DNA of 64,000 bases from a virus. Below the pieces are notes generated by a model. It did no database searches. It had not been told where the DNA came from and saw only the letters and a program-made list of their open reading frames with translations. How positions within the stretch are numbered: position 1 is the stretch's first letter; every line of letters starts with the position of its first letter. Below, one piece after another: positions 52 to 57,739 of this stretch. The stretch spans positions 41,164 to 105,163 of the IMG/VR virus record IMGVR_UViG_3300012928_000001; one strand, given 5' to 3'. The translations under genes and the position numbers were made by a program.

Positions 52-1311
52 GTGGCAACGCTCACCGATGCTGATTGGTACACGCTCACCGGGGATACGT
101 ATGTCCAAAACACGGCGCAGCTTTTTGCCGCTAGTTTCGAGGACACGATCACTCGTGCGCTCGCAGTCTTTGGCCCACGCACTGGACCGTTTGGCGCCGA
201 GCTGGACAACGCGCAGCTTTACGGGATCTTGCAGACGCAGGGGATCACGTTCACGTCCGCGCAAGTGATCGACTCGGTCAACGTGCTTTTGCAGCGCGGG
301 ATCTTCTACCGCACGCTCGGCCCGAACCGTGCCGAGTACATCAAAGCCGAGAATCAGGTGCCGCCTTTTTCCGAGGGTGGTGCTGGCTTTGGCGACGCGG
401 CCACGAGCACGGCCGTCCCGGTGATCCGCCGCGGCCCTCAGGGGGAGCCCGGGCTGCAAGGCCCCGCCGGCCCCCAGGGGCCGCGAGGAATTCAGGGCAC
501 GACCGGCGTCCAGGGTCCCCAGGGAGCCACAGGCCCGGCCGGTGCCATGGGACCCCCAGGGCCCCAGGGCGACCCAGGGCCCGCGCTCGTGCCCGAGTCG
601 TTCGCGTGGGCGTCGACGCAGCTCATCACCGCGGTCGCCAACACCTTCTACCTCATCTTCCCGGGGGCGCCCTCGGGCATGTTGACGCTTCGGCTCCCGG
701 TCACGCCCCCGAACGGGACGCGGATCGGCCTGAGTCTCCCGACGAGCTCGCTCGCGGCGGCGGGGCAGCCCCTGACCTTGCTCGGCGGCGGCGCGACCAT
801 CTCGCTCCCGGTGGCCAATGAAGCCATGACTGTCCTCCTACAGCCAACCGATCCGCTGCTCCGCCCCGGCTTCGGATTGATCTTGACCTACTCGCAGAAT
901 GGCAATAGGTGGGTTACGTCTACCTGGTTTCAGGATGAGATCAATTTGCCGATTGGGCCTGATCGGCGAAACTCGTTTACGTCGACCGGAACTTACATCG
1001 ATCTCGAAACACTCGGTACGGTTGCCGAAGGCGAAGCGTTCACATTCGAGGGGTCGGTGTCCGCGAGCTATCAGACCGGAGCGGGCGCGCGCTTCGTGGA
1101 CATCATCCAAGTTCGTGGCACTGCTCGGCGCAACATGGGTGCACCCGGAACAACCGTGACAAGCAACATGCTTCCGAGCGGCAACCTACCCGGCGGCGAC
1201 GCGCGGATCTTCGTGGTCGCCGGACAGAACGACGTGCGTCTACAGGTTCGCACGACCACCGCGGGCCAGACGTTGATCGTCGCGTGGAATGGAATTTGGC
1301 GATCGCTGTGA
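52..1311 (+). CDS. Collagen-repeat protein (probable virion fibre/appendage)
   Basis: 17 consecutive G-X-Y triplets, followed by a beta-rich, Gly/Thr-rich C-terminal region. Confidence 0.7.
433..585 (+). repeat. Collagen-like (G-X-Y)17 repeat
   Basis: [51 protein letters not shown]. Confidence 0.95.
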
Positions 1312-1336
1312 CTCGCATGATCGTTCGGCCTACAGT
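1307..1336 (+). promoter_or_regulatory. Conserved phage promoter motif, copy 1
   Basis: TGTGAC-N18(ending TTCGGCC)-TACAGT; 5 nt before GTG 1342. Confidence 0.75.
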
Positions 1337-1341
1337 AGGCC

Positions 1342-1626
1342 GTGCCACGCAAAAAGACATACGACCCCAGCCGGGGTAAGCAGACCTGCAAGCGCTGCGG
1401 CACCGAAGCCCGGCCGCTCCGCCACAACAAAACGTGCGCGCTTTGTGGGGTCACGTGTTGCATGAATCAGCCCGGCACCGTCTCCGGCTTGGTCTGCGAA
1501 AAGCCGACCCGGCAGTCTCGCCGTAGCCGCCGGATAAACCCGGAGGGCGTGTGGGTGACCAAGGTTTTTTGCTCACAAAAATGCGTCGACAACTTCGCCG
1601 TTGTGCAGACGATCAGAGGTCTTTGA
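1342..1626 (+). CDS. Small Cys-rich (Zn-finger-like) hypothetical protein
   Basis: CxxC pairs and FCSxxC motif; begins directly after promoter motif. Confidence 0.6.
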   Translation: MPRKKTYDPSRGKQTCKRCGTEARPLRHNKTCALCGVTCCMNQPGTVSGLVCEKPTRQSRRSRRINPEGVWVTKVFCSQKCVDNFAVVQTIRGL

Positions 1627-1627
1627 C

Positions 1628-1999
1628 ATGAACGAAAACGAGCTACTTCAATCCGTATTCAGCAAATGCCCCGTGTGCGAGGGCCCGGTCGACATCACCA
1701 CGGCGGAGACCGTGAGCGTGCCGCGAACAGACGGGGGCGACTTCACCGAAGTCGTGGTGGTCTGCTCGGAGAGCTGCGCCGCCGCGGCCGAGACCATCGC
1801 AGCGATCGAGGCCGACGACGGCCGCCACCGCGAGCACGAGGAAGAGCCCGAGGCCGACGTGAAGCCCGGAGCCAAGTTCCACGCGTACACGCTCGACGAG
1901 TTCAAGCGGCCCGAGCCTGACGAGGCCGACGACATCTCGCGCAAGTCGATGGCCGAGCTCATGGCCGGCGAGCTCCAAGAGCGCAGCGACGCATACTGA
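1628..1999 (+). CDS. Hypothetical protein, CxxC...CSxxC motif and acidic tail
   Basis: ATG 1628 follows previous stop; high GC3 codon usage. Confidence 0.6.
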   Translation: MNENELLQSVFSKCPVCEGPVDITTAETVSVPRTDGGDFTEVVVVCSESCAAAAETIAAIEADDGRHREHEEEPEADVKPGAKFHAYTLDEFKRPEPDEADDISRKSMAELMAGELQERSDAY

Positions 2000-2025
2000 C
2001 TCGGGTGTGGTAGGCTGGGCGCTCC

Positions 2026-2592
2026 ATGACCGCGCCTAACCTCGAACACATCGTGACGCCGTTGCGCCAGTTCGCCGTCCCGATTTCCGACCTGACCCCG
2101 GACCCGAAAAACGTCCGAATCCACAGCAAGCGCAACCGCGATGCGCTGCGCGTCAGCTTGACGAAATACGGGTTCATTGAGCCGATCATCGTCCAGCGGC
2201 AGGGCATGATCATCCGCGCGGGGAACTGTCGCACGAAGCTCGCGGGAGAGCTCGGATGGACCCACGTCCCCGCGCTCATCGTCGACCACAACGACGTCGA
2301 GGCGACGGCCTTCGCCATCACGCACAATCGCACAGGCGAGCTCGGCGAGTGGGATGAGAAGGCCCTCGCGCAACAGCTCGCGGAGCTGCAAGCGAGCTCG
2401 ATCGAGCTGTTCACGACGACGGGTTTTGACGCGGCCGAGGTCGATAGGCTGCTCGGGACCCCGCTCGTGATTCCTGACGACCCCGTCGAAGAGCTGACCC
2501 CGCCGGACAGCTTCCCGGAGATCGACGGGACCGAGCCCACCGATCACCGCTGCCCCTCGTGCGGCTACGAATGGAACGGGAAGTCGAAGTGA
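2026..2592 (+). CDS. ParB/Sulfiredoxin-like N-terminal domain protein with C-terminal Zn ribbon
   Basis: ISDLTPDPKNVRIH...SLTKYGFIEPIIV...IRAGNCR...HNRTGELGEWD; terminal CPSCGYEW. Confidence 0.85.
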   Translation: MTAPNLEHIVTPLRQFAVPISDLTPDPKNVRIHSKRNRDALRVSLTKYGFIEPIIVQRQGMIIRAGNCRTKLAGELGWTHVPALIVDHNDVEATAFAITHNRTGELGEWDEKALAQQLAELQASSIELFTTTGFDAAEVDRLLGTPLVIPDDPVEELTPPDSFPEIDGTEPTDHRCPSCGYEWNGKSK

Positions 2593-2843
2593 TCGAGCAG
2601 CTCCGCCGTCGGCTCGACTATACCGACCGCCTACTGGTCCGGCTGCTCTCGCAGCGGTCGGGTCTCGTGGCCAAGGTCCAGCGCGCCCGCGCAGCCGGGG
2701 GCGGGCCCTCGCGGGACCCTGAGCGTGAGGAGGTCGTGCGAGCCCGCGCCGAGCAGCTCGCCCGCGAGCTCGGGGGCTACCCGCCCGATGTTGTGCTCAC
2801 GATCTTCGAGATTCTGTTCGCCAACGCGGAGCGGGCCCAATGA
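2589..2843 (+). CDS. Chorismate mutase, AroQ/type II
   Basis: LRRRLDYTDRLLVRLLSQR...RAR...RDPEREEVV...Q pattern matches AroQ catalytic residues; GTGA overlap with upstream stop and ATGA overlap with downstream start. Confidence 0.85.
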   Translation: MIEQLRRRLDYTDRLLVRLLSQRSGLVAKVQRARAAGGGPSRDPEREEVVRARAEQLARELGGYPPDVVLTIFEILFANAERAQ

Positions 2844-3928
2844 AGCCGCCGTACTACGTGCCGACCATGGCTGTGGTCGAGGCCGCGCGGGGGACCAATG
2901 GCTACACCGCGGTCTCGACGTTCTCGGGCGCGGGCGGCAGCTGTCTCGGGCACACCCTCGCCGGCTTCGCTGTGCTGTGGGCGAATGAGTTCATTCCCGC
3001 TGCGCAAGATACCTACATGCGGAATCATCCTACCTCGCATCTCGATACCCGAGACGTGCGAGAGGTGCAGGGCGCCGACATCCTGAACGCGGTCGGAAAA
3101 GACATCGGGGAGATCGATCTTTTCGATGGCAGCCCGCCGTGCTCCGCGTTCTCGAATGCGGGGAGTCGGGGCCAGCAGTGGGGAAAGATCAAAGGCTACA
3201 GCGACACCAAACAGCGGGTTGATGATCTGCTCTTCGAGTTCGCGCGTCTCGTCGCGTTCACGCGCCCGCGGGTGTTCGTCGCTGAGAACGTTGGGGGGTT
3301 GCTCCGCGGTAAGGGGTTGGGACGGTTTCGGGAGCTCGTCAAGCGTCTGCCGGGGTACACGATCCGCGCTCAGACCATGGACGCGGTTTGGATGGGCGTC
3401 CCCCAACGCCGCGAGCGGGCGATCATCATCGGTGTTCGCAGTGATCTAGGAGTGCCGCCAGCATTCCCGAAGCCGCTGAAATACTACTACACGGCCGGAG
3501 ACGCGCTCCCGTGGCTACGCGCTCCCGCGGGCACCCGCGTTGCGCGTCTGGGCGAGATCACCGATCGCGTCCCTCTAGCCAAGAGCCGGCGCGAGGGCAA
3601 AAAGTACAACACCTACGAAGTGCTCCCACATAGGCCCTGTCCCACCGTCACCGTGGCGAGCGATGGCAATGACCTGTTTATCATCGGTCCGACTGAGCAG
3701 GAAGCCAATGCTGGCATCATCGCGCCCGCGGACCCGCGGAAGATCAATATCTCCGAGCTCCGCCGCCTGTGTGGCTTTCCTCCAGACTTCCAGCCTACTG
3801 GGTCGTTCTCGAAGCAATATGAGCGACTCGGCCGCGCTGTTCCGCCACCCATGATGTGCGCCGTAGCCTCGACGATCCGCGATGCTGTGCTACGAAAAGC
3901 AGACCATGGGCAGCAACAGCAGCATTGA
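2840..3928 (+). CDS. C5-cytosine DNA methyltransferase family; predicted DNA carboxymethyltransferase
   Basis: Motif I FSGAGG, IV GSPPCSAFS, VI ENV, VIII QRRER, IX ELRRLCGFP, X variant ERLGRAVPP (Asn to Arg). Confidence 0.92.
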   Translation: MKPPYYVPTMAVVEAARGTNGYTAVSTFSGAGGSCLGHTLAGFAVLWANEFIPAAQDTYMRNHPTSHLDTRDVREVQGADILNAVGKDIGEIDLFDGSPPCSAFSNAGSRGQQWGKIKGYSDTKQRVDDLLFEFARLVAFTRPRVFVAENVGGLLRGKGLGRFRELVKRLPGYTIRAQTMDAVWMGVPQRRERAIIIGVRSDLGVPPAFPKPLKYYYTAGDALPWLRAPAGTRVARLGEITDRVPLAKSRREGKKYNTYEVLPHRPCPTVTVASDGNDLFIIGPTEQEANAGIIAPADPRKINISELRRLCGFPPDFQPTGSFSKQYERLGRAVPPPMMCAVASTIRDAVLRKADHGQQQQH

Positions 3929-4619
3929 TCACACCCCCGAGGACCGCTGGGTCTTTGACGAGTCCGTCGCGGATTGCTTCGAGGACATGTTGTCCCGATC
4001 CATCCCACAACACGACGAGATGCGCCGACTCGTCGGCAACGTCGGCGGGGTCGGGGTGGCCGACGGGACCCTTGTCGTTGACTTGGGATGTAGCCTCGGT
4101 CAGGCGATTGTCGACGTGCGCCGAGTAGCTCTCTCGCGTGGCATCAATGCGGTGTATCATGGGCTGGAGACGAGCGCTCCGATGCTTGATCGTGCCAAAG
4201 CGCGATTCGACTCTGTCGATGTCTTTGTAACGAACGAAGATGTGCGGACATGGAACGGCGACAACTGTAGCGTGGTGCTGGCAGTGCTTACGCTACAGTT
4301 CATCCCGATCAACTACCGACAGCAAATCATCCGCAACGTATTCGAGTCCCTGAACCCCGGTGGGCGCTTCGTGCTCGTCGAGAAAGTGCTGGGCGAAGGG
4401 GCGCAGGTCGATGATCTCATGGTCGCGCACTATCACCACAACAAACTCCAACAGGGCTATTCGAGGCAAGCTGTACGAGCGAAAGCGGAGTCCCTCGAAG
4501 GTGTGTTGGTCCCGGTGACTGCTGGCATGAACGAATCGATGCTTCGCCGTGCGGGCTTCCGTGAGGTAGACTGCTTTTGGCGATGGATGAATTTCGCGGC
4601 ATGGGTGGCGATCAAGTAG
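3906..4619 (+). CDS. cmoA: CmoA-like carboxy-S-adenosyl-L-methionine synthase
   Basis: WVFDESVADCFEDMLSRSIP, DLGCSLG, TLQFI, LNPGGRFVLVEK, GYS...K..LEGV, AGF...NF follow CmoA along its whole length. Confidence 0.85.
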   Translation: MGSNSSIDHTPEDRWVFDESVADCFEDMLSRSIPQHDEMRRLVGNVGGVGVADGTLVVDLGCSLGQAIVDVRRVALSRGINAVYHGLETSAPMLDRAKARFDSVDVFVTNEDVRTWNGDNCSVVLAVLTLQFIPINYRQQIIRNVFESLNPGGRFVLVEKVLGEGAQVDDLMVAHYHHNKLQQGYSRQAVRAKAESLEGVLVPVTAGMNESMLRRAGFREVDCFWRWMNFAAWVAIK

Positions 4620-4813
4620 CCTGCGAACACCCGAGCCCCACAGAGCTCGTGCCCGGCGTGAAGTTGTGTCGGGGCTGTGGGGCTCTCCATGTGAACGGTC
4701 GATGGGGGCGCGTCCCGTTGCCCCCAAAGCCGTGCTGTGAGGAGTGCGAGCAGAACCGTCGACGGCTCGCCGATACTTGGTACAGAGAGCGTAAGTGTGC
4801 AGGTTGCAAATGA
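4601..4813 (+). CDS. Small Cys-rich hypothetical protein
   Basis: Three CxxC-type motifs; start uncertain. Confidence 0.35.
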   Translation: MGGDQVACEHPSPTELVPGVKLCRGCGALHVNGRWGRVPLPPKPCCEECEQNRRRLADTWYRERKCAGCK

Positions 4814-5132
4814 GATCCGGCGCGCGTTTCTCCGCGCCCAAATGCGCGTTGATCTGGAGCGCAACCTAGACGCGCTAGCAGATGCGCATGGGGTGAGCGT
4901 CGAGTACGTCGCGGGTATGATCAAACACGTGATCGAGACCTGCGCGGGGGACCACGTTGACATGCTCTTCGCCGTAGACAGTCGGCTCCAGCGGGGCGTG
5001 CATGTCGAGCCCGTCGCGCCCCTGACCGAGACCGTCAACAAAGTACAGGCGGCGCTGTCGTCAGGCCTGAAAGACGTGGTATCGTCTGGCCCGAATGCGC
5101 TACAGCGTGAAAGTCTTCGCCGTCCGGTGTGA
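4797..5132 (+). CDS. Hypothetical protein
   Basis: ORF in operon context; start uncertain (GTG 4797). Confidence 0.45.
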   Translation: MQVANEIRRAFLRAQMRVDLERNLDALADAHGVSVEYVAGMIKHVIETCAGDHVDMLFAVDSRLQRGVHVEPVAPLTETVNKVQAALSSGLKDVVSSGPNALQRESLRRPV

Positions 5133-5331
5133 CGAGAAGGGCCGGCGCCTGCCCACCCCCGAGGGCAAAAAGCCCTACGTCGCCCAGGACCGGGTTCACG
5201 TCGAGGCCCAGGGACACGATGCCGCCAAGGCAGCTGCGCGCGCCGAGCTGTCCAAGGGCCGTGGCCGGGTCATCTCGATCAACTTCGAAAGCGATACCGC
5301 GCTCGTGGCGTACGTGGAGAGCAGCAAATGA
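5095..5331 (+). CDS. Hypothetical protein
   Basis: High GC3 codon usage; ATGA overlap with next gene. Confidence 0.55.
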   Translation: MRYSVKVFAVRCDEKGRRLPTPEGKKPYVAQDRVHVEAQGHDAAKAAARAELSKGRGRVISINFESDTALVAYVESSK

Positions 5332-5693
5332 GTCGCCGTGCAATCATTGGTAACGAGGCCGATCTAACGCGGCATCTCCCGACCGACCCCAACGACCCCG
5401 ACACGCTCGTCACGGGCAATTCGGAGACCTACGATGTGTCGCGGTTTCAGATGCAGACGGCGGCGGTACACTTCGGTTTTGACGCGGGCTCTTCTGGCGA
5501 CTACACGCTACAGGGAGCCGTTGGTAGTTCGAGTCCTTGGGTGGATATTCAATCGAACATCACAAGCGATACGCTGATCAACTTCTCGGAGCCGCCGAAT
5601 AATCATTACTGGGCTCGGTTGCGTGTTGTTGTGAATACTGTAGGCGCCGAAGATGATACAATCACCCTCGGCGCGCACGAGTACGTTTGGTAG
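5328..5693 (+). CDS. Hypothetical beta-sandwich-like protein (possibly virion)
   Basis: Coupled start; beta-rich pattern ending in ARLRVVV. Confidence 0.6.
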   Translation: MSRRAIIGNEADLTRHLPTDPNDPDTLVTGNSETYDVSRFQMQTAAVHFGFDAGSSGDYTLQGAVGSSSPWVDIQSNITSDTLINFSEPPNNHYWARLRVVVNTVGAEDDTITLGAHEYVW

Positions 5694-5713
5694 TCGCAAA
5701 AAGGAAATAAAAG

Positions 5714-6628
5714 ATGCCCGGCCGCAATCCAGTTTTTCCTGCCCCGCGAGATATTCGTCGTCAAACGTACTATCCCGGCGTTTCGCTATCGCTTGCCGAG
5801 ATGGTCGCGCTCGGCCATATCGCGGGCGCAAAAATTGTGCACTTTACCGGACGCCGAGAAGATGTAGACGGTGAGGCCGAAGCATGGTCGGCACTCCTAC
5901 CGACTACGCGTGCCCCATACCGGCCCGATATTTCTGGCGGACCTATTGGGTGGACTCCCGAGCCTTTGACGGCGCAGAGTACTTCGTCAGATGACGGGGG
6001 CGCCGGATCGGGTGCGCAGGTACTACTAGTTGAATACCTGAACGCGGATGGGTTTGAACGCATTGGTCTCGCACTGCTCGCGGGAACGGGGACAGTACCG
6101 GTTCTCGAAGCAACGTCACAAGGTGTTGGTAATGCAAACACCATTGTCCCGTTGATGCCTCCAACGCCTGCTACGGGAGTACGCGTAAACCGCGTAACAG
6201 TAGTTGCCGGTGGTGTGCCAGCAGGGAACTGCACCGTCGAACTTGGTGGTCAAGCTGCACAGCGGCTGCTTCCGGGTCAAGCGCTGTCATCGACAAGTCG
6301 CTTTACTGTGCCACGTGGATTTATTGGGTTGATTCACGGTCTCGGCTATGGTGTTGATCGTGAACAGCGGGGGCTCGTGCGTGTTTATGCACAGCCGCTC
6401 GGGCGGCTGGACTATGAGTTCACCGCCTACGAGGCCAGTAACGGTGCCCTTGCGGTACCGCTTGCAGAGCCAATTCGGCTAGCACCGCTGGGTGAGTTGG
6501 GACTAACTTTTGAAAAGGACTCGGGTGGTGGAAACATCGATGTATCCAGCATTCTGCAACCGATCTTCCTCCCGGATCCCAACGACCCTGATCCAGCGCC
6601 AGAACGACAAGCGCCGCCGTTGGGCTGA
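5714..6628 (+). CDS. Hypothetical protein (possibly virion)
   Basis: 304 aa ORF with AAGGA SD upstream; unusually AT-rich third codon positions. Confidence 0.65.
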   Translation: MPGRNPVFPAPRDIRRQTYYPGVSLSLAEMVALGHIAGAKIVHFTGRREDVDGEAEAWSALLPTTRAPYRPDISGGPIGWTPEPLTAQSTSSDDGGAGSGAQVLLVEYLNADGFERIGLALLAGTGTVPVLEATSQGVGNANTIVPLMPPTPATGVRVNRVTVVAGGVPAGNCTVELGGQAAQRLLPGQALSSTSRFTVPRGFIGLIHGLGYGVDREQRGLVRVYAQPLGRLDYEFTAYEASNGALAVPLAEPIRLAPLGELGLTFEKDSGGGNIDVSSILQPIFLPDPNDPDPAPERQAPPLG

Positions 6629-6635
6629 GTAGAAC

Positions 6636-8615
6636 ATGAGTGCTCTAGACGCTTTTTTTGCTACTGAGTTGCCGCCTCAACGCTCCTCGGTAGAAAAAGT
6701 CGACACAGCAAATGACGCCGTAAGTAAGGGGTCTGTGCGTACGTCATACACGGGACGAGACGGTACAGAGCGAAGCAACGTACTACAGACAGACGCAGGG
6801 ACGCGACGGTTGTTCGCACGGCATGGTGCCATTGAGCCGCCTTTGGACCCTATTATGCTTGCGCATTTGCACGAGATGAGTGGGGCGCTGCGCTCAAACA
6901 TCGATGCATATGTCACTAACATTGACGGTTTCAGCCACACGTTTGAGCCGTCACTAGATCTTGACGATGACGAGACCCGCGAGCGCATCGCCCAGGCCAT
7001 GCTCGAAGAGCGGATCCTCGGGGTGGTCCAAGAGGCGAGTGTCGAGGAGCAGGCCAAGCGCCTGCTGAAAGAGTTCGCCGCCGCGAATGATGGGGAGGAT
7101 GGAGAGCCGACCGGGGCCGACGATCAAGCCCCCCTCGACGTCACGCCACCGACCGATGCCGAGGTCGAGGCACGGATCGACGCCATCCGCCGGGAGATGA
7201 TCCGCGAGCGCATGCGGCTCGAACGGTTTTTTGAGTTCTGCTGCGTCACGGAGAGTTTCATGTCTCTTCGCATGCGCACGCGGCAGGACATCGAGCTGAT
7301 CGGGAATGGCTATTGGGAGGTGCTGCGCAACTCCAACGGCGACATCGTGCAGTTCACGTATGTGCCAGCATTCACGGTGCGACTACTCCCGGCCGACAAG
7401 GACCCGATCGAGGTCGAGATGCCGGTGAAGCTCACCGCCATCACGGAGAACACCGAGACCGTCGTTCGCCGCTTCCGCCGATTCTTGCAGATCAGCGAGA
7501 CCCGCGAGCGCACGGTGATCTACTTCAAGGAGTTCGGCGACCCACGCGTGGTGAGCTCGAAGACCGGCGAGGTCTACGAAACCCCCGAACTACTGGCAAA
7601 GGCGGAGGGCGACACTCGCCCCGCTACCGAGATGATCCACTTCAAAGTTCACAACTCCCGGACGCCCTACGGCGTGCCCCGGTGGGCGAGTGAGCTGCTC
7701 GGAGTGCTCGGCAACCGCAACGCCGACGAGGTCAACCTCGCGTACTTCGAGAACCGTGCGATCCCGCCGATGATCCTCACCGTCTCGGGTGGTCGTCTCG
7801 CGGGTGACTCCGCGACGGTCTTTGAGAACTACTTCAAATCCCAGATCCGCGGCAAGCGGCACCATCACAGTGTGGCGATTGTCGAGGCCGAGCCCCCGGG
7901 ACTCGCGGGCGGCATGACGAACGGCACCGTCAAGCTCGACGTGATCAAGCTGCGCGATGTCCAGCAGGATGACGCGATGTTCATGGGCTACCGCGAGGCC
8001 AACGTCGACGCGATCGGCTCCGTGTTCCGCATGCCCCGGCTGCTCCGCGGCGACGTGCGAGACTTCAACCGCGCGACCGCCCAGACCGCCCTCGACTTCG
8101 CCGAAATGCAGGTGTTCGCACCGCTCCGCGCTGAGTTCGATTTCACGATCAACCGGCAGATCCTCGCCGACTTTGGCGTGCGGTTTTGGAAGTTCAAGAG
8201 CGGCACGCCGGACTTCTCCGACCCCGCCGAAGTGCTGCAAAATCTCCAGCTCGCGGAGAAGTACCTCGTGCCCAACGAACAGCGCGAGGCGGCCGCGGGA
8301 GCCCTCGGCCGCGAGCTCGAAAAGCTCGACGCGGCCTGGGCCCGGGAGCGTCCTCTCGCCGTCACGCTCGCCGCCATCGAGCGCAAGACGAACCTGGTCG
8401 ACGTCGACGGCGAGGCCCTGCCCGAGCAGGAGCCCCCGCCCCCACCCGAGGCCAAGCCGCTCGCGGGCGGGCCCCCAGGAGTCGACGAGGGCGAGGAAGA
8501 GCAGGCCAAGGCTATCCGCAAGAGCGTCGACGAGCGCGTGCGCGACCTGATCGAGCTGCGCGACGCCGCCGATCGGCTCGGGTTCCTGTCGACCAAGGAC
8601 ATGCTCGATGTGTGA
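6636..8615 (+). CDS. Phage portal protein (PBSX-like)
   Basis: DIELIGNGYWEVLRN, EMIHFK...TPYGVPRW, YFENRAIP, DFNRATA; first gene of the head module. Confidence 0.9.
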   Translation: MSALDAFFATELPPQRSSVEKVDTANDAVSKGSVRTSYTGRDGTERSNVLQTDAGTRRLFARHGAIEPPLDPIMLAHLHEMSGALRSNIDAYVTNIDGFSHTFEPSLDLDDDETRERIAQAMLEERILGVVQEASVEEQAKRLLKEFAAANDGEDGEPTGADDQAPLDVTPPTDAEVEARIDAIRREMIRERMRLERFFEFCCVTESFMSLRMRTRQDIELIGNGYWEVLRNSNGDIVQFTYVPAFTVRLLPADKDPIEVEMPVKLTAITENTETVVRRFRRFLQISETRERTVIYFKEFGDPRVVSSKTGEVYETPELLAKAEGDTRPATEMIHFKVHNSRTPYGVPRWASELLGVLGNRNADEVNLAYFENRAIPPMILTVSGGRLAGDSATVFENYFKSQIRGKRHHHSVAIVEAEPPGLAGGMTNGTVKLDVIKLRDVQQDDAMFMGYREANVDAIGSVFRMPRLLRGDVRDFNRATAQTALDFAEMQVFAPLRAEFDFTINRQILADFGVRFWKFKSGTPDFSDPAEVLQNLQLAEKYLVPNEQREAAAGALGRELEKLDAAWARERPLAVTLAAIERKTNLVDVDGEALPEQEPPPPPEAKPLAGGPPGVDEGEEEQAKAIRKSVDERVRDLIELRDAADRLGFLSTKDMLDV

Positions 8616-39031: not shown

Positions 39032-39098
39032 TGGTGGCATCGGATAGACAGGATTCCCGTTTCGCGGCGGGCGCACTAGCCATTGTGCCTTCGACGAC
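39032..39098 (-). pseudogene. tRNA-like element with CCA end but no intact T arm
   Basis: Minus strand: GTCGTCG...CGATGCC-A-CCA acceptor, D arm GCAC-AATGGCTA-GTGC, CCCG/CGGG arm. Confidence 0.45.
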
Positions 39099-39104
39099 AA
39101 ACTA

Positions 39105-39126
39105 CCGTAGCCCGAATGGGCTACGG
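39105..39126 (-). terminator. Hairpin downstream of the leftward operon
   Basis: CCGTAGCCC-ATTC-GGGCTACGG then TAGTTTGT on the minus strand. Confidence 0.55.
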
Positions 39127-39151
39127 AGTCACAGATCGTCCGAGAAAAATC

Positions 39152-39757
39152 TCAGACTCCGAGGTTGGGCGGGTTGGGCTCGAAGACCACGCCCATCCGC
39201 TCGCGCTCGGTGGTGTCCTTGCCGAGCTCTTCGTAGAAGCGATCGAAGGTCGCTTGATCCTTCGTGAAGAGCGCGTACAGGTGAGGGTGCCGCGGCTGCG
39301 GCTGCAAGATGGGCGAGCCGCCGCCCTCGCGGTCCGGGGCGTAGGACTTGATCCGCGCGCGGAGCAGGCAGACGCTCGCCGCGAACTCGGGCAGGTAGGT
39401 GTGAAACCAGGCCCGGTCCGTGGCCGCCGGGAGCAGGGCCAGCACCGTCGAGCCGCGCTGGGCCTCGATCGACGCTTTCTGAACCCACCGGCTCAGCGGG
39501 TACCACTCGAAGTTGGGCTCTTCCTCGGGCCGGCGCTCGCCGTGCGTCGGGTTGAGCAACACGCGAGGACCCCAGGCCAAGCGCATCCCGTCGTTCTCCG
39601 CGGTGTCGCCAAAGCAGACCCGGTCGGCCTTGAGGAACTGGTCCGGGTGACCGCACGGATCGTCGGTCGGCTGACCGCCGAGGATCCGATAGGCGCGCTC
39701 GCACTCTTCGGGCGGGAGTAGGTAGTCGTATTCGATGATCTTGGGGGGCTTGCTCAT
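39152..39757 (-). CDS. Phage Dam-like N6-adenine methyltransferase homologue with altered catalytic motif
   Basis: DPC, NDG...W.PRVLLNPTH (expected NPPY), WVQKA, VLALLPAATDRAWFH, LLRARIK. Confidence 0.7.
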   Translation of the reverse strand: MSKPPKIIEYDYLLPPEECERAYRILGGQPTDDPCGHPDQFLKADRVCFGDTAENDGMRLAWGPRVLLNPTHGERRPEEEPNFEWYPLSRWVQKASIEAQRGSTVLALLPAATDRAWFHTYLPEFAASVCLLRARIKSYAPDREGGGSPILQPQPRHPHLYALFTKDQATFDRFYEELGKDTTERERMGVVFEPNPPNLGV

Positions 39758-40164
39758 GGGCTTGCGTCCTCTTCCTGGGTGAAGCCGAGACACGCACTCA
39801 CCGTGGTAAGCAGTAGCGGTGCCTCGACGATGGCGCGCCCGATCGTACATGCCTCGCGCATGAGACAATTCGGGCACAAGTGATTCTCGCTGCGCAGCGC
39901 TTCGAGTGCGCTCGCCGTGTCGGGAGTGTCGGTCTCGACCGGGGCCGCGGACTCCCACAGAGCATCGAGCGCCTTGGCCTGTGTGGGATCGGTGTAGTCC
40001 GTGAATGTCGCCATGTTATCGCGGTCTGCCGCGTGCATGCCAGCCATGGCATCCTCGGCAGTCTGCACGGCGAGTTGGGCGTTGTGAGCCTCGATCTCTC
40101 CTCGCTGCCCCTCGTCGCTCACCCACCGAACGATGGTGCCGTCAATCCACACTTGATATCGCAT
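39754..40164 (-). CDS. Hypothetical protein
   Basis: ATG 40164; overlaps both neighbours; Cys cluster. Confidence 0.6.
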   Translation of the reverse strand: MRYQVWIDGTIVRWVSDEGQRGEIEAHNAQLAVQTAEDAMAGMHAADRDNMATFTDYTDPTQAKALDALWESAAPVETDTPDTASALEALRSENHLCPNCLMREACTIGRAIVEAPLLLTTVSACLGFTQEEDASP

Positions 40165-40660
40165 CTTTTTCCCAGTAATCGCGGTAGTAGACCCCGAGGC
40201 CGATCCCGATCGCCGCGGCCTCGTCGTCGGGCATCTCTCGGGCGTACCGAGATCCAATGATCTCAGTGTACTCGGTTTTGCTGGCGTTGCCAGCCCCGCA
40301 GACAAGCTTTTTCCACACACCGACATTCACCTCGATCAAGGGAACGTCGAGGTCTCCCATCACGAGTTCTGTGTGCGCGTGCATGCCTCCCCACACGTGC
40401 GCGGATGCGGTGCTAGTGTGGCGCTTCACGCCCTCGAAGGCGCACACGATCTCGCGCTTGGGATGCTTCTCGCGGGTCTCTGTGACGAGCTGGGTCAGGT
40501 AGCGCCGGAGCAGCCACCATCGCCCCCACGAGAGCTTGGCCCACGCGCCGGCTTTCAGCTTGAACACGCCCGAGTCCAGGCACTCGACACCATCGAGCAC
40601 GGCAAAGCCGTAGCTGTTGCCGTAGTCGGCACCGATGATCAGCGGCCGGTTGTCAGCCAC
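40142..40660 (-). CDS. RuvC-like Holliday junction resolvase
   Basis: IIGADYG..YGFAV, AFEG, WKKLVCGAGNASK, DDEAAAIGI. Confidence 0.8.
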   Translation of the reverse strand: MADNRPLIIGADYGNSYGFAVLDGVECLDSGVFKLKAGAWAKLSWGRWWLLRRYLTQLVTETREKHPKREIVCAFEGVKRHTSTASAHVWGGMHAHTELVMGDLDVPLIEVNVGVWKKLVCGAGNASKTEYTEIIGSRYAREMPDDEAAAIGIGLGVYYRDYWEKDAISSVD

Positions 40661-41262
40661 TGATCGACCCTCGCGGTCACGGCATCCGCGACGCTGTAGA
40701 TGCTGCCGTCGCCGTCGACGAGCCCGAGCCGGTCTGGGTGTCGCTCGCACAACGTAACGTAGGCCTCGCGCGCGCTCGACATGCGCTCGAAGTTCTCGAA
40801 GCGGTCGGGCTGCGCGTCGTCGCGGCTCAACATGCGATTCAACGCGAGCCCCGGATCGAGATCGATGACCACGGTGAAGTCGGGCCGCGTGTTCTCCGGG
40901 GAGATGTGCGCGTGTGCTGGATTGTCGACGCCGTGGTAGGCGTAGGAGCTCCACACAGAGCGATCGGAGACAAAGACGAGCTCGCCCTCGCCCCCTTGCT
41001 TGTCGCGCGCGTCGGCTTGCCTCGCCATCATCATGCAGTGGATGATTCGGTCGGCCGCGAAAAGCACGTTGAGCTCGACCTCGCTGATCGTCGGCGCGAT
41101 GAGCTGCTCACGGATGAGCTGCCCGATTGGTCCGTCCGTAGGCTCGCGGACCAATCGGGCGTCAAAGCCCGCGCGGGTGAGATGCTCGACCAGCAGCTGG
41201 GTTTGGGTCCCCTTGCCGCATCCGTCGATGCCCTCGACCGCGATGTGCGTGTAGGCCCTCAC
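40639..41262 (-). CDS. tmk: Thymidylate (dTMP) kinase
   Basis: IAVEGIDGCGKGTQ, REPT, LFAADR, SDRSVWSSYAY, PD. Confidence 0.92.
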   Translation of the reverse strand: MRAYTHIAVEGIDGCGKGTQTQLLVEHLTRAGFDARLVREPTDGPIGQLIREQLIAPTISEVELNVLFAADRIIHCMMMARQADARDKQGGEGELVFVSDRSVWSSYAYHGVDNPAHAHISPENTRPDFTVVIDLDPGLALNRMLSRDDAQPDRFENFERMSSAREAYVTLCERHPDRLGLVDGDGSIYSVADAVTARVDQWLTTGR

Positions 41263-41530: not shown

Positions 41531-42952
41531 CTAGTCGCGGACCCAGATTTTTTCGCCGTAGTTGATCTTGCTGTCGTATCCGCCGCCCTCGACCCAGGGC
41601 TCGCACGCATGGTCGCCGACGAGGACCCAGATCACCTTGAAGCCCTTCGGCGGGAGCGCGGGGCCAGGTCCTCCGCCGTCGGTGAGGACCACGAGCAGGT
41701 TCACGTCGTCGAGCCTCTCGACCGCCTCGAAGATCGGGGTGAAGTAGGTCCCCCCGCCGCCCTTCAAGCTCTTGCCGAGCTCCGTCCAGCTGTGGACTTT
41801 CTTGGCGCCGCCGTGGACCTTGGCGTCGCAGCTCAGGAACTGGATGTCGTCGACCTCTTCGAGGATGCCCTTGCACTCCGCGAGCGCGAGCGCGAGATCG
41901 TCTTGTCCCATGCTCCCCGACGTGTCGACCGCGACCGCGACCTTGGGTTGCATGCCCACCATGGTGGGCAGGATGGGGTGCCCGGGGCCGTAGCCCAGGG
42001 CGCCCTGTTGACGCGAGGGGCGGTGCAGGGAGTAGTCCATCATCCCCGCGATGTGCTGCACCGCGCCGCGCAGGGTCTTGCGGAGCTCATCCTGCCAGCG
42101 GATCTTTGGCGGCTTGATCTTGTCCTCCGCCCAGACCGCCCAGCCCTTGGGGACCGAGCCGCGCCCGTTTTGCTTGGCGTAGCTCTGGACCTGCTCCGCG
42201 GTTTCCTTGCGGAGCTGCTCCAGCTCCGACTCGCTGCGCCCGCCCTCGGTCGGGTTGGCCCCGTTGCCGGCCCCGTCGTTGGCGATGCCCTCGCCGTCTC
42301 CGTCGCCGTTGCCGTTGCCGTCGCCGTTGCCGTCGCCCTGTCCTGGGTTCCCGCTGCCGTCGCTCGTGTAGTTCTCCTCGCCGGGGAGCGGGTTCCCAGC
42401 TCCGCCGCCGCACATGCCCGAGCCCGGGCGCGCGCCCGGGACGGCCTTGGGCGGATTGTCCATGGCGAGCAGCGCGTGATAGTAGACGACTTCCGGCAAT
42501 CCGGTTTCCATGGGTTCCATGGTCTGCGGATGCGTGATCTTGTGGGGCAACATGTCCGACGGTAGCGGCTTCAACCCCGCGGCGATCAAGTCGTCATTGA
42601 TCGCCGCGTCATAGGCCAGATTCGCAATCTGCGGATTCCACCCATTGGCGATCGTCATGGTGACGTGATCTCGAATGATGTGCATCGTCTCGTGCAGCAG
42701 CCCGAACTCGACATCCGCGAGTGACCACTTTTCGATGACATCGGGATCGTAGAGCAAGATCGCCGTGCGCGTGACCGCCATGCCGGCGCCCATCTTGGCC
42801 ATCATGCCGGGCACGGCTCGGGGGATGAGACTGAGCAGCGCCGTGCCGAAGTAGGGGAGTCGACGACGCGCGATGAATCGCGCCGTCATGATTTTCTGAT
42901 CGTGCGACAGGTGTTCGGCGTTGGCGTTGGTGAAGCGGCTTCGACGGCTCAT
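41531..42952 (-). CDS. Metallopeptidase-like (HExxH) + vWA domain protein
   Basis: LLHETMH, NLAYDAAIND, VAVDTSGSM (MIDAS), GGGGT.F, LTDG. Confidence 0.88.
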   Translation of the reverse strand: MSRRSRFTNANAEHLSHDQKIMTARFIARRRLPYFGTALLSLIPRAVPGMMAKMGAGMAVTRTAILLYDPDVIEKWSLADVEFGLLHETMHIIRDHVTMTIANGWNPQIANLAYDAAINDDLIAAGLKPLPSDMLPHKITHPQTMEPMETGLPEVVYYHALLAMDNPPKAVPGARPGSGMCGGGAGNPLPGEENYTSDGSGNPGQGDGNGDGNGNGDGDGEGIANDGAGNGANPTEGGRSESELEQLRKETAEQVQSYAKQNGRGSVPKGWAVWAEDKIKPPKIRWQDELRKTLRGAVQHIAGMMDYSLHRPSRQQGALGYGPGHPILPTMVGMQPKVAVAVDTSGSMGQDDLALALAECKGILEEVDDIQFLSCDAKVHGGAKKVHSWTELGKSLKGGGGTYFTPIFEAVERLDDVNLLVVLTDGGGPGPALPPKGFKVIWVLVGDHACEPWVEGGGYDSKINYGEKIWVRD

Positions 42953-45965: not shown

Positions 45966-46037
45966 GACCGCGTACGCCAACGGTAGAGCGCAGAACTAGC
46001 TAGTCTGGGTTGCGGGTTCGAATCCCGCCGCGGATCG
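45966..46037 (+). tRNA. tRNA or tRNA-like element (apparent anticodon AGC, atypical)
   Basis: CCGCG/CGCGG acceptor core, CGC-CAACGGTAGA-GCG D arm, CAGA..TCTG anticodon stem, canonical T arm GCGGG-TTCGAAT-CCCGC. Confidence 0.6.
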
Positions 46038-55042: not shown

Positions 55043-57739
55043 ATGCGTCGCTTGCCGCTGTACACCACACGGGCGCAACCCATCGACCGGATTGCTGGCC
55101 TCGATCGAAACCCGAAGTGTACAGCGTGCGACCGACATAAGTCCTCTCGCCTTGTCTGTATTCAAGCGCAAGCCGTGCCGCGCGGGCCCGTCCAGGGCGG
55201 CGCCCTGATCGTCGGTGATTGGCCAACGGTCGGGGAGGAAGGGGCCGGGGTCGTGTTCTCCTCGGAGGTGAACTCGCAACTGCGCGCGTTCATTGAGTAC
55301 AACTATCAGGGCACCGTGGTCTACGCGTCCGCGGTGGGCTGCTCGGCTCGCGGCGAAGCGCCATCCGACAAGGAGATTGCCGCTTGTCGGCCCTACCTCA
55401 AAGCGATCATCGACGAAGCGAAACCTGAGCGCATCATCTGTCTTGGCAAGGTCGCTTATCGCTCGGTGCTCGGGACGAAAACGCCGGCGAAAGACAGCCG
55501 ACGCGGATACAATCACCTCGAAGACGGTACACCCGTTTTCATGTTTCCGACTGCGCGCTCGCAGTATGTAAACGTGTTTCATCGGCGGTGCTTTCTTGGC
55601 GACATGGTGTGGGCACTGCAAGCAAGCCCCGAACCTGCGCCGTTCGATATGCAGGTCGAGATCATCGAGACCGCCGACGACGCAAAGCTGGCATGCGACG
55701 AGCTGCGCAAGGGTGGGCGGTTCTCATACGACACGGAGACCTCGGGCCTGATCGGCTCGGATTTCTTCCGCGTGCTGTGTCTCGCCGCCGCTACGGCGGA
55801 CGCCGGTCGGGTGTTTCTGTGGGATTGGCAAGCGCTCCTCTCAGTCCGCGAGGATCTGGTCGAGCTCATGCGCGACGACACGGTCAAGAAGACCGGCCAC
55901 AACCTCAAGTACGATCTCAAAGCGGCGGCGCATGGCATCGCCGGGTTGATCGATGACTTTGGGCGGTTGCTCGTCAAAGGCGTCGACACCGACACGCTGC
56001 TACTGACGAAAATGCTCGACTCCGAAGTGCTCTGTCGCCTGGAGTATCAGGCCGAGCGCGTCGGGATGGGCGGGCACAAGGAAGAGAACAAAGCCGCGCT
56101 TGACATGGCCGTCGCGTCCATCCGAGCGGCGCGAGCGAAGCCTCGGCAACGCATCTTCCCCGGACTGTTCGAACCCGCAATGGAGGCCGCGCTGCGGCAC
56201 CCGCTCGTCGATGAAAAGTCGTTCGCGTTCGGGCTCATCCCGCCCACGATCTTGCACCGTTACTGTGCGCTCGACACCGTAGCCACTGCGCGGCTTCGGA
56301 ATCTCATGCACCCGGACATCGAGCGCGCAGACCATCACCGGCTCGTGAACTCGACATTCGTCCGGCCGTCGACGGGGGCGCTCGCACAGATCGAGAGCTG
56401 GGGCATGAGCGCGAGTCCAGACGCGGCACGGCTCGCGGGGCTACACCTTCGCACCGAGCGGGACAAGGCGATGACCAAGATTCGCGCGCTCGGATGCGAC
56501 ATCAACATCGCGTCGCCCGCCCAGCTGTCAGAGTACTTGTTTGGTCGGCTCGGGTTGCCGGTCTACGGGCGCACGCCGACCGGCGGCGCCTCGACCAAGG
56601 CGGAGTTTTTGAAGCCGCTCGCGGAAAAGCACCCCGTCGTCGAGCCGCTGCTACTGCACTCGAAGCTCGACAAGCTGATCGGCACATACGCCGACGGCTT
56701 GATCCCACACATTCGCAACGGACGGATCTACACCAACATCAATCAGGACGGCACGCGTTCTGGCCGATGGTCTTCGAGCTCGCCCAACTTGCAGAACATC
56801 CCGTCGGGCGGACCTTGGGCTAAGTACATCAAATCGATTTTCACCGCGCCGCCTGGACACCTGCTAATCCAGCTCGACTATTCGCAGCTAGAGCTTCGAG
56901 TCGCCGCCATGCTCACCGGCGATCCGAAGATGATCCAGATCTACAAAGACGGGCAAGATTTCCACCGCCGAACCGCGGAGCTCATCGCCCCGGCGATGTG
57001 GAAAATCGACGCGAGCCAGGTGACCAAGGATCACCGTCGCTCGGCAAAGGCCTTCAACTTCGGCGTTTGGTACGGGCAGGGAGACGGCACCATCGCCAAG
57101 AATCTTGCTGTGTCGCGCAAGATCGCGGCGCAGCTTCGCCACGAAGTTCTCGGACAGTTCACCGAGGCGGGACCGTGGATCGACGGGCGGAAAACCTACG
57201 CGCAGATGCACGGAATCACGTGGACCTATTGGGATGGTCAGCACGCCCGCGTTCGGCAGCTCCCCGACATCGTCTCTTACGATGACAAGCTCAAGTCGAC
57301 CGCCATGAACGGCAGTTTCAATACCGCAGTTCAGGGCACCGCCGCGCTGTTCATGGAGCGCACAATCGGCGAGGTCGTTCGTTGGATCTTGTCTTCTGGT
57401 CTGCCCGTCCGCGTCACCAACACAGTCCACGATTCCATCATCCTCGAAGTGCCGTTCCGTCTCGTGAATCTTGTGATTGACGTGGTGACGGACATCATGG
57501 AGAGTTGGCCTAGCGGCCCCGTGCCGCTCGTCGCTGACGCGGAGATTGGATCCACCTGGGCCAGCTTGCGTGACTACGCGTTGATCAAGAAAGTCGCCAA
57601 CTTCACCGCTCGGAACATGTTCACCGACGAGGAGATCTGCAAGGTGCTCGGCATCCTCACCGACCCCCCGACCAAGGCCCCGGATTTGGTCGAGCTCGGC
57701 GAGCTCCGGCGCCTCGCAAAACTCGTCGGCCGGCTGTGA
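55043..57739 (+). CDS. Family A DNA polymerase with N-terminal UDG family-4-like domain and 3'-5' exonuclease
   Basis: DTETSG, GHNLKYD, YCALD; TRSGRWSSSSPNLQNIP, DYSQLELR, RSAKAFNFGVWYG, VHDS. Confidence 0.95.
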   Translation: MRRLPLYTTRAQPIDRIAGLDRNPKCTACDRHKSSRLVCIQAQAVPRGPVQGGALIVGDWPTVGEEGAGVVFSSEVNSQLRAFIEYNYQGTVVYASAVGCSARGEAPSDKEIAACRPYLKAIIDEAKPERIICLGKVAYRSVLGTKTPAKDSRRGYNHLEDGTPVFMFPTARSQYVNVFHRRCFLGDMVWALQASPEPAPFDMQVEIIETADDAKLACDELRKGGRFSYDTETSGLIGSDFFRVLCLAAATADAGRVFLWDWQALLSVREDLVELMRDDTVKKTGHNLKYDLKAAAHGIAGLIDDFGRLLVKGVDTDTLLLTKMLDSEVLCRLEYQAERVGMGGHKEENKAALDMAVASIRAARAKPRQRIFPGLFEPAMEAALRHPLVDEKSFAFGLIPPTILHRYCALDTVATARLRNLMHPDIERADHHRLVNSTFVRPSTGALAQIESWGMSASPDAARLAGLHLRTERDKAMTKIRALGCDINIASPAQLSEYLFGRLGLPVYGRTPTGGASTKAEFLKPLAEKHPVVEPLLLHSKLDKLIGTYADGLIPHIRNGRIYTNINQDGTRSGRWSSSSPNLQNIPSGGPWAKYIKSIFTAPPGHLLIQLDYSQLELRVAAMLTGDPKMIQIYKDGQDFHRRTAELIAPAMWKIDASQVTKDHRRSAKAFNFGVWYGQGDGTIAKNLAVSRKIAAQLRHEVLGQFTEAGPWIDGRKTYAQMHGITWTYWDGQHARVRQLPDIVSYDDKLKSTAMNGSFNTAVQGTAALFMERTIGEVVRWILSSGLPVRVTNTVHDSIILEVPFRLVNLVIDVVTDIMESWPSGPVPLVADAEIGSTWASLRDYALIKKVANFTARNMFTDEEICKVLGILTDPPTKAPDLVELGELRRLAKLVGRL

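Follow-up and report, generated by a model that had tools for sequence, protein, structure and literature searches.

Why would a tailed phage keep a gene for chorismate mutase, an enzyme central to the aromatic pathway, among genes that appear to modify its DNA? The question is raised by IMG/VR virus record IMGVR_UViG_3300012928_000001, the 105,163-bp genome of an uncultured tailed phage, of which we studied the last 64 kb (the window: 64,000 nucleotides, record positions 41,164 to 105,163; positions given here refer to the window unless stated otherwise). The record is complete, with 123-bp direct terminal repeats and a CheckV completeness of 100%. Between positions 2026 and 4619, four plus-strand open reading frames (ORFs), each overlapping the next, encode a ParB_N-domain protein, a chorismate mutase (CM), a DNA cytosine C5-methyltransferase homologue (MTase) and a homologue of the carboxy-S-adenosylmethionine (carboxy-SAM or Cx-SAM) synthase CmoA (Table 1). 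An earlier note on this DNA had described these overlapping genes and proposed that they lead from chorismate over prephenate and Cx-SAM to 5-carboxymethylcytosine (5cxmC) in phage DNA. All four genes and their overlaps are present as described, and our in silico analyses support the route, through the CmoX-type residues of the MTase and its match to the CmoX structure 8YF3, a CmoA score above that of a proven phage CmoA, the AroQ-type residues of the CM, and the recurrence of CM in related cassettes. Judging from these sequence features, we consider the locus to be a predicted four-gene operon for 5cxmC formation, with a probability of roughly 0.7.

The core of this pathway is known. Working on Synechococcus phage S-B43, Yang et al. 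(Nat Commun, 7 December 2025, PMC12783734) reported that a phage CmoA makes Cx-SAM from SAM and prephenate, that the C5-MTase homologue CmoX passes the carboxymethyl group on to C5 of cytosine to give 5cxmC, and that CmoY then amidates this product with glycine. The S-B43 enzyme (SpCmoX) accepted Cx-SAM only and had GC specificity. CmoX candidates were defined in that study by an SPPC motif and by an Arg (Arg350) that stands where M.HhaI has Asn304 and that binds the carboxylate of the cofactor. The published survey counted 5,615 candidates, 4,257 linked CmoA genes, 2,251 ligases and 1,660 ParBc proteins. The earlier note had cautioned that CmoA-linked carboxymethyltransferases might already be reported, which was well founded, and had suggested that the on-board prephenate supply could be the more distinctive part. 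This suggestion holds up: the availability of prephenate is named in PMC12783734 as needing investigation, neither "chorismate" nor PF01817 occurs in that article or the three supplementary files searched, and no other paper in the literature searched links a phage CM to CmoA. We conclude that the CmoA/CmoX/ParB core of the window is a new member of the system published in December 2025, and that the in-operon CM is, as far as the literature searched shows, an unreported and recurrent accessory to it.

In the pathway that we propose, the small AroQ CM would convert host chorismate into prephenate, which CmoA would use together with SAM to form carboxy-SAM, releasing phenylpyruvate. Cys101 of the CmoX-type MTase would then attack C6 of the target cytosine and Arg332 would hold the carboxylate of carboxy-SAM, allowing the carboxymethyl group to pass to C5. 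The predicted end product is 5cxmC as the un-amidated acid, and the phage would probably benefit by being shielded from restriction or other defences of its host, an advantage also proposed for S-B43.

The MTase shows both published sequence features of CmoX, namely, the SPPC motif and an Arg where methyltransferases have the motif-X Asn. In the PDB, its sequence is closest to SpCmoX (8YF3, E 4.2e-51), with M.HaeIII next (E 2.4e-19), and it aligns to SpCmoX over the full length (34% identity, E 2e-63). In this alignment, S98-P99-P100-C101 fall on S95-C98 of SpCmoX and Arg332 (GRAVPP) on R350 (GRMVPP), at a position where M.HaeIII has GNAVP. Both the SPPC residues and Arg332 are invariant among 20 relatives of the MTase, and Arg occupies the motif-X position in 137 of 153 related loci. 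An AlphaFold2 (AF2) model of the protein (pTM 0.80) again has 8YF3 as its top Foldseek match (E 6.5e-28, TM 0.72/0.78). No other C5-MTase was found in the genome. A basic residue at the motif-X position has been shown to matter in an engineered enzyme, M.MpeI N374K, in which replacement of the Asn switches cofactor use to Cx-SAM (cited in PMC12783734); unlike that variant, the window MTase is natural, has Arg rather than Lys and lies alongside its own cofactor supply genes. Database searches also returned candidate CmoX-CmoA fusions (P0151, P0152, P0154 and P0155), single polypeptides of 610 to 758 amino acids with PF00145 and a CmoA-like methyltransferase domain.

The CmoA homologue matches the TIGR00740 model over its full length (E 5.2e-48, 163.8 bits), and its best PDB match is E. 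coli CmoA (4GEK, E 1.8e-34). It also matches PHROG 4752 (E 3.9e-67), is 42 to 57% identical to CmoA genes beside CmoX on IMG/VR contigs, and agrees with the phage CmoA consensus in its DLGCS (class I SAM-binding), TLQF, LEGVLVP and CFWRWMNF blocks. It belongs to the same Cx-SAM synthase family as the enzyme of the E. coli CmoA/CmoB pathway to tRNA cmo5U34 (4GEK, 4IWN), and the same prephenate-dependent chemistry is expected. In contrast to that pathway, the complete phage genome contains no match to CmoB (PF08003) or to the ho5U34 hydroxylase TrhP (PF01136), so that the lack of cmoB seen earlier in the window extends to the whole phage; the predicted acceptor is C5 of cytosine in DNA, reached through a C5-MTase fold, and Arg199 of the E. 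coli CmoA is not conserved.

The CM is a stand-alone protein with a clear match to Pfam CM_2 (E 6.7e-14, 52.3 bits against a cut-off of 27; 51.5 bits in the genome-wide search), the only such match in the genome, and among PDB entries its sequence is closest to the Thermus CM 2D8D (E 1e-7). Among its possible starts, ATG 2571 fits the gene call of the protein collection (P0001, 90 amino acids). In an alignment with 30 relatives, two columns are Arg throughout, and the RDPxRE block and the C-terminal Gln are retained. It resembles the AroQ CMs 2D8D, 5MPV and 6YGT in having a three-helix AroQ domain with the predicted catalytic Arg, Arg, Asp/Glu and Gln columns. It differs from them as a stand-alone phage protein in translational coupling with DNA-modification genes, and it carries no fused prephenate dehydratase or dehydrogenase domain. 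The sequence itself is isolated. A comparison with 1.84 billion cluster representatives gave no relative more than 50% identical to it, the next best match having 41% identity at E 1e-8; a word-index search for CM homologues recovered only the CM itself; and a search for related IMG/VR loci with the window CM alone gave no relative, the CM-alignment query for this search having no usable conserved stretch. This protein most likely makes the prephenate that the pathway would consume.

To see how closely CM is tied to CmoA and CmoX, we built a CM profile from 119 cluster-representative matches to the window CM. The profile was run against six-frame translations of 80 IMG/VR CmoA loci, 80 metagenome CmoX loci and 23 CmoX loci from a genome collection (1.43 Mb in total, E < 1e-6), which include 158 surveyed CmoX loci. 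This yielded 15 matches, all on the same strand as the cassette and all at most 67 nt from a ParB, CmoX or CmoA gene, with no match elsewhere in the 1.43 Mb; a weak match in L005 (E 0.003, at a contig end) was left out of the count. The divergent CMs were detected solely by the profile, tblastn of the window CM finding nothing in the 80 IMG/VR CmoA loci. After collapsing duplicates at 90% identity, CM occurs in 8 of 60 assessable CmoX clusters. CM recurs inside CmoX/CmoA cassettes of unrelated phages and prophages, forming at least five divergent lineages (the window, L134, L086/L185, L019, L070 and a clade of Verrucomicrobiota prophages) whose CMs are just 18 to 34% identical to one another. 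Most of these loci have the order ParB-CM-CmoX-CmoA, and L070 has ParB-CmoX-CmoA-CM. On the CmoX tree, CM-bearing rows are scattered, implying at least 5 changes, and well-supported branches require at least 3 of these; the count of changes is approximate, since some of the CM-negative rows are short contigs. All CM-linked MTases whose motifs are covered have [S/T]PPC and the Arg.

One locus, L184, is a prophage in a complete Verrucomicrobiota chromosome (CP170459.1). Besides ParB, CM_2 (Pfam E 3e-10) and a C5-MTase, it encodes a divergent CmoA-like methyltransferase (TIGR00740 E 1e-14), PolA, an AAA_25 protein and a GpA terminase. The same arrangement, ParB-CM-CmoX followed by the divergent CmoA-like gene, is found throughout the Verrucomicrobiota (pro)phage clade (L184:5176-7888, L170, L172, L173, L176, L177, L183 and L188). 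Its CmoA-like methyltransferase is 23 to 24% identical to the window CmoA, and Cx-SAM synthesis by it is putative. Several copies of the cassette can occur within a single metagenome-assembled genome (MAG), as on four contigs of JAKQDD01. One 90% CmoX cluster mixes CM-bearing (L183, L188) and CM-less (L178-L181) members, the CM site being between ParB and CmoX, which suggests that CM was gained or lost recently within this cluster. A single MAG (JACKPW01) is the source of all four CM-less members, in which no CmoA was detected by tblastn.

Outside such cassettes, CM is almost absent from cultured phage genomes. Neither the window CM nor the L134 CM had a tblastn match in 50,697 phage records, and a typical bacterial CM matched 6 of them, including at least three that appear to be bacterial contigs filed wrongly: two 232- to 305-kb "phage" contigs with pheA and one 691-kb Salmonella contig. 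These INPHARED entries (CAKLQH020000004.1, CAKLQF020000002.1 and AGRM01000002.1; filed as phage, 232 to 691 kb, with pheA or CM) would inflate counts of "phage" CMs. PHROGs contains a single weak CM-like family. We found no CM anywhere in five other virus records, four of them CmoA-bearing (with CmoX also in the loci) and the fifth Streptomyces phage TurkishDelight. A search for longer CmoA-containing proteins, a weak negative, returned CmoX-CmoA fusions and no CM fusion.

TurkishDelight (NC_073473) is the nearest cultured relative with respect to the MTase (43% identity, E 2e-81). Its genes 121 to 125 (L001:4335-9363) form a ParB-ParB-CmoX-ligase-CmoA cassette at the right genome end, and its CmoA, like that of the window, has Ala at the column of E. 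coli Arg199. Unlike the window phage, it has a ligase of the glutamine-amidotransferase type between CmoX and CmoA and no CM in its genome. The cassette is annotated generically ("methyltransferase" and similar), and TurkishDelight is a tractable cultured actinophage for testing amidated 5cxmC. The S-B43 proteins are more distant (CmoX 34% and CmoA 27% identical to those of the window). The two systems share a phage CmoA adjoining a C5-MTase homologue with SPPC and the Cx-SAM-binding Arg, the lack of CmoB, and a ParBc-domain neighbor, an association already published (PMC12783734). They differ in that the window phage has an in-operon AroQ CM, of which the publication on S-B43 makes no mention, and no CmoY amide ligase. 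In the complete genome, we found no Asn-synthase-type ligase (PF00733) and no tblastn match (E <= 1) to either SpCmoY or the TurkishDelight ligase. Since CmoB, TrhP and a CmoY-type ligase are all missing from the genome, plain 5cxmC rather than its glycine amide is the predicted product, barring an unrecognised enzyme. The genome holds 11,464 GpC sites. If the MTase had the GC specificity of SpCmoX, each genome copy would take about 23,000 Cx-SAM and hence about 23,000 prephenate molecules, which illustrates why supply could matter.

Several observations weigh against this interpretation. Both in this phage and in its CM-bearing relatives, the pathway is a prediction from gene content. The CM stays below all NCBIfam chorismate mutase equivalog cut-offs (best TIGR01791, 46.2 versus 66.95 bits), and it has Arg in a column where most relatives have Lys. 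The active site of E. coli CM comprises R11', R28, K39, D48, E52, S84 and Q88, and the window CM appears to have Ala at the equivalent of Ser84. For the CmoA homologue, the TIGR00740 score is below the curated cut-off (163.8 versus 193.3 bits); SpCmoA, which is biochemically active, scores only 115.6 bits, showing that this cut-off, tuned to bacterial CmoA of the tRNA pathway, excludes a proven phage enzyme. The window CmoA also has Ala at the column of E. coli Arg199, which in the E. coli enzyme forms a salt bridge with the Cx-SAM carboxylate (PMC3663124). In a set of 83 phage CmoAs, 65 have Arg in this column, 9 have Lys and 5 have Ala, the adjacent Lys being invariant; SpCmoA has Glu. We considered the loss of Arg199 as a disqualifying feature and rejected it, since the active SpCmoA lacks this residue too and Arg199 is therefore not required in phage CmoAs. 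In the MTase, the target-recognition region (about residues 205 to 290) cannot be aligned to SpCmoX and is of low confidence in the AF2 model, so that the GC specificity of SpCmoX is not transferable. About 87% of the assessable CmoX clusters have no CM, which makes the CM an accessory and not a requirement. Finally, a scarcity of prephenate in the host of this phage is hypothetical.

Other readings of the locus were weighed. The MTase could be a plain SAM-dependent 5-methylcytosine (5mC) methylase, with CmoA serving something else such as host tRNA cmo5U; PF00145 membership alone would indeed not tell methyl from carboxymethyl transfer. We regard this as very improbable, because Arg332 replaces the Asn of motif X and SpCmoX, which shares this Arg, took Cx-SAM only, because the genome has neither CmoB nor TrhP, and because CmoX-CmoA fusion proteins occur in databases. 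Another possibility, compatible with our preferred explanation for all earlier steps, is that 5cxmC is merely an intermediate whose carboxyl group is amidated, esterified or decarboxylated by an unrecognised enzyme encoded elsewhere. An amide ligase is present on 2,251 of the 5,615 published CmoX contigs (PMC12783734), TurkishDelight has one within its cassette, and most genes of the window phage have no Pfam match. The ligase searches of the complete genome were negative, and the cassette genes overlap, with a hairpin behind the last of them, so we consider a further modification unlikely.

The remaining two alternatives concern the CM. It may be an AroQ-fold protein with a different role here, such as an isochorismate-pyruvate lyase, an enzyme for another chorismate-derived substrate or a non-catalytic partner of CmoA. 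The scores below the equivalog cut-offs, the changes from Lys to Arg and probably from Ser to Ala at active-site columns, the lack of close relatives, and the third helix, which in L019, L070 and the Verrucomicrobiota clade departs from what is typical of AroQ, would all fit this view. It seems quite unlikely to us, given the two invariant Arg columns and the retained RDPxRE block and terminal Gln, and given that the same Arg variant is found in the solved CM entries 5MPV and 6YGT ("intracellular chorismate mutase"); moreover, prephenate is a known co-substrate of CmoA (PMC12783734), making CM the simplest reading. Alternatively, the protein could be a true CM that acts as an ordinary auxiliary metabolic gene, boosting Phe and Tyr or draining chorismate from host folate, quinone or siderophore synthesis, with its position in the operon being incidental. 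The place of CM in the aromatic pathway and the many CmoX clusters without it speak for this idea. Its prospects appear slim against the pattern of linkage, in which 15 of 15 CM matches in 1.43 Mb lie within 67 nt of a cassette gene; these matches represent at least five divergent lineages and two positions. The rarity of CM in cultured phage genomes, the absence of a fused prephenate dehydratase or dehydrogenase, and the lack of any aromatic-pathway Pfam match among the large ORFs elsewhere in the genome point in the same direction. A CM that supplies prephenate to CmoA and, through it, to the CmoX-type MTase remains the explanation that we favor.

The organization of the locus is summarized in Table 1. 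The cassette lies between the large terminase gene (genome positions 39095 to 40639) and the portal gene (window positions 6636 to 8615). At the ParB-CM junction, GTG 2589 overlaps the ParB stop codon TGA 2590-2592 (GTGA, 2589-2592); CM and MTase share ATGA at 2840-2843; and the MTase and CmoA frames overlap by 23 nt, from the CmoA ATG 3906 to the MTase end at 3928. The third-position GC content (GC3) of all four frames is 0.72 to 0.87, similar to that of adjoining phage genes. The gene identities proposed in the earlier note were borne out by the profile searches, which for the first gene gave Pfam PF02195 (ParB_N; E 8.7e-7, 29.4 bits against a cut-off of 26.3). This protein also matches PHROG 620, "ParB-like partition protein" (E 3e-36), and a ParB homologue adjoins CmoX in 52 of 80 IMG/VR loci and 62 of 80 metagenome loci. 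The hairpin behind cmoA is possibly the operon terminator; a terminator pattern scan did not detect it, and the RNA fold of 4615-4700 (-36 kcal/mol) has a z-score of just -1.6, weakly better than shuffled sequence. A sigma-70 promoter scan of 1200-6700 found no promoter. At and immediately 5' of the cmoA ATG 3906, positions 3894-3908 read AGCAGACC-ATG, which is like the AGCAGACA(G) leader motif described before early genes of the genome.

Table 1. Coordinates of the modification cassette and its sequence motifs in the 64-kb window
Feature	Position	Strand	Details
ParB_N (ParBc) protein	2026..2592	+	188 aa; first cassette gene; CxxC in C-terminal tail
Stand-alone AroQ-class chorismate mutase (CM)	2559..2843	+	84-94 aa depending on start (GTG 2559, ATG 2571 or GTG 2589)
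CmoX-type DNA cytosine C5-carboxymethyltransferase homologue (MTase)	2840..3928	+	362 aa; PF00145 E 2.3e-45
MTase motif I, FSGAGG	2921-2938	+	
MTase SPPC with predicted catalytic Cys101	3131-3142	+	
MTase ENV	3284-3292	+	
MTase motif X, GRAVPP with Arg332	3830-3847	+	Arg codon CGC 3833-3835
CmoA-type carboxy-SAM synthase homologue	3882..4619	+	237 aa from ATG 3906, 245 aa from ATG 3882
GC-rich hairpin	4633..4685	+	11-bp perfect outer stem; 14 nt 3' of cmoA stop; no U tract

The rest of the genome is that of a divergent phage. Other recognizable genes encode baseplate, tape-measure, PolA, DnaB-like, RecA and SbcCD-like proteins, and the majority of genes have no Pfam match. The portal protein is at most 37% and PolA at most 30% identical to any cultured phage, with mixed hosts among the matches. 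PolA, a family A DNA polymerase (55043-57739, plus strand), has an N-terminal domain of the uracil-DNA-glycosylase superfamily (residues 48 to 180), followed by 3'-5' exonuclease and polymerase domains. A gene for a 419-amino-acid collagen triple-helix repeat protein (52-1311, plus strand; Pfam E 2.8e-9) is situated between terminase and cassette. The sole tRNA gene of the window is a tRNA-Ala with the unusual anticodon AGC (45966-46036, plus strand), and a DUF2201 putative metallopeptidase with a VWA-like domain (41531-42952) is encoded on the minus strand amid otherwise plus-strand genes.

A broader picture, which we offer tentatively and at somewhat less than even odds, is that prephenate supply, and not the transferase, limits carboxymethylation. 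Phages would then have repeatedly captured a minimal CM without a regulatory domain, making CM and CmoA a self-sufficient unit. The 5cxmC of the window phage would be terminal, negatively charged and un-amidated, on up to about 23,000 cytosines per genome if the enzyme is GC-specific, and carboxy-SAM systems might generally tend to bring their own prephenate source.

The recurrence of an in-operon CM in several unrelated phage and prophage lineages gives a direct, testable answer to the question of the prephenate source left by PMC12783734. The separate labels "tRNA methyltransferase," "DNA methylase" and "chorismate mutase" currently hide the pathway. Together, CM, CmoA and CmoX make up a small cassette with which DNA could be carboxymethylated even where the host has no CmoA or free prephenate, and which would be useful for the sequencing and DNA-labelling approaches already built on Cx-SAM transferases. 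For the phages themselves, CM would be a metabolic gene recruited to feed a DNA-modification cofactor and not general host metabolism.

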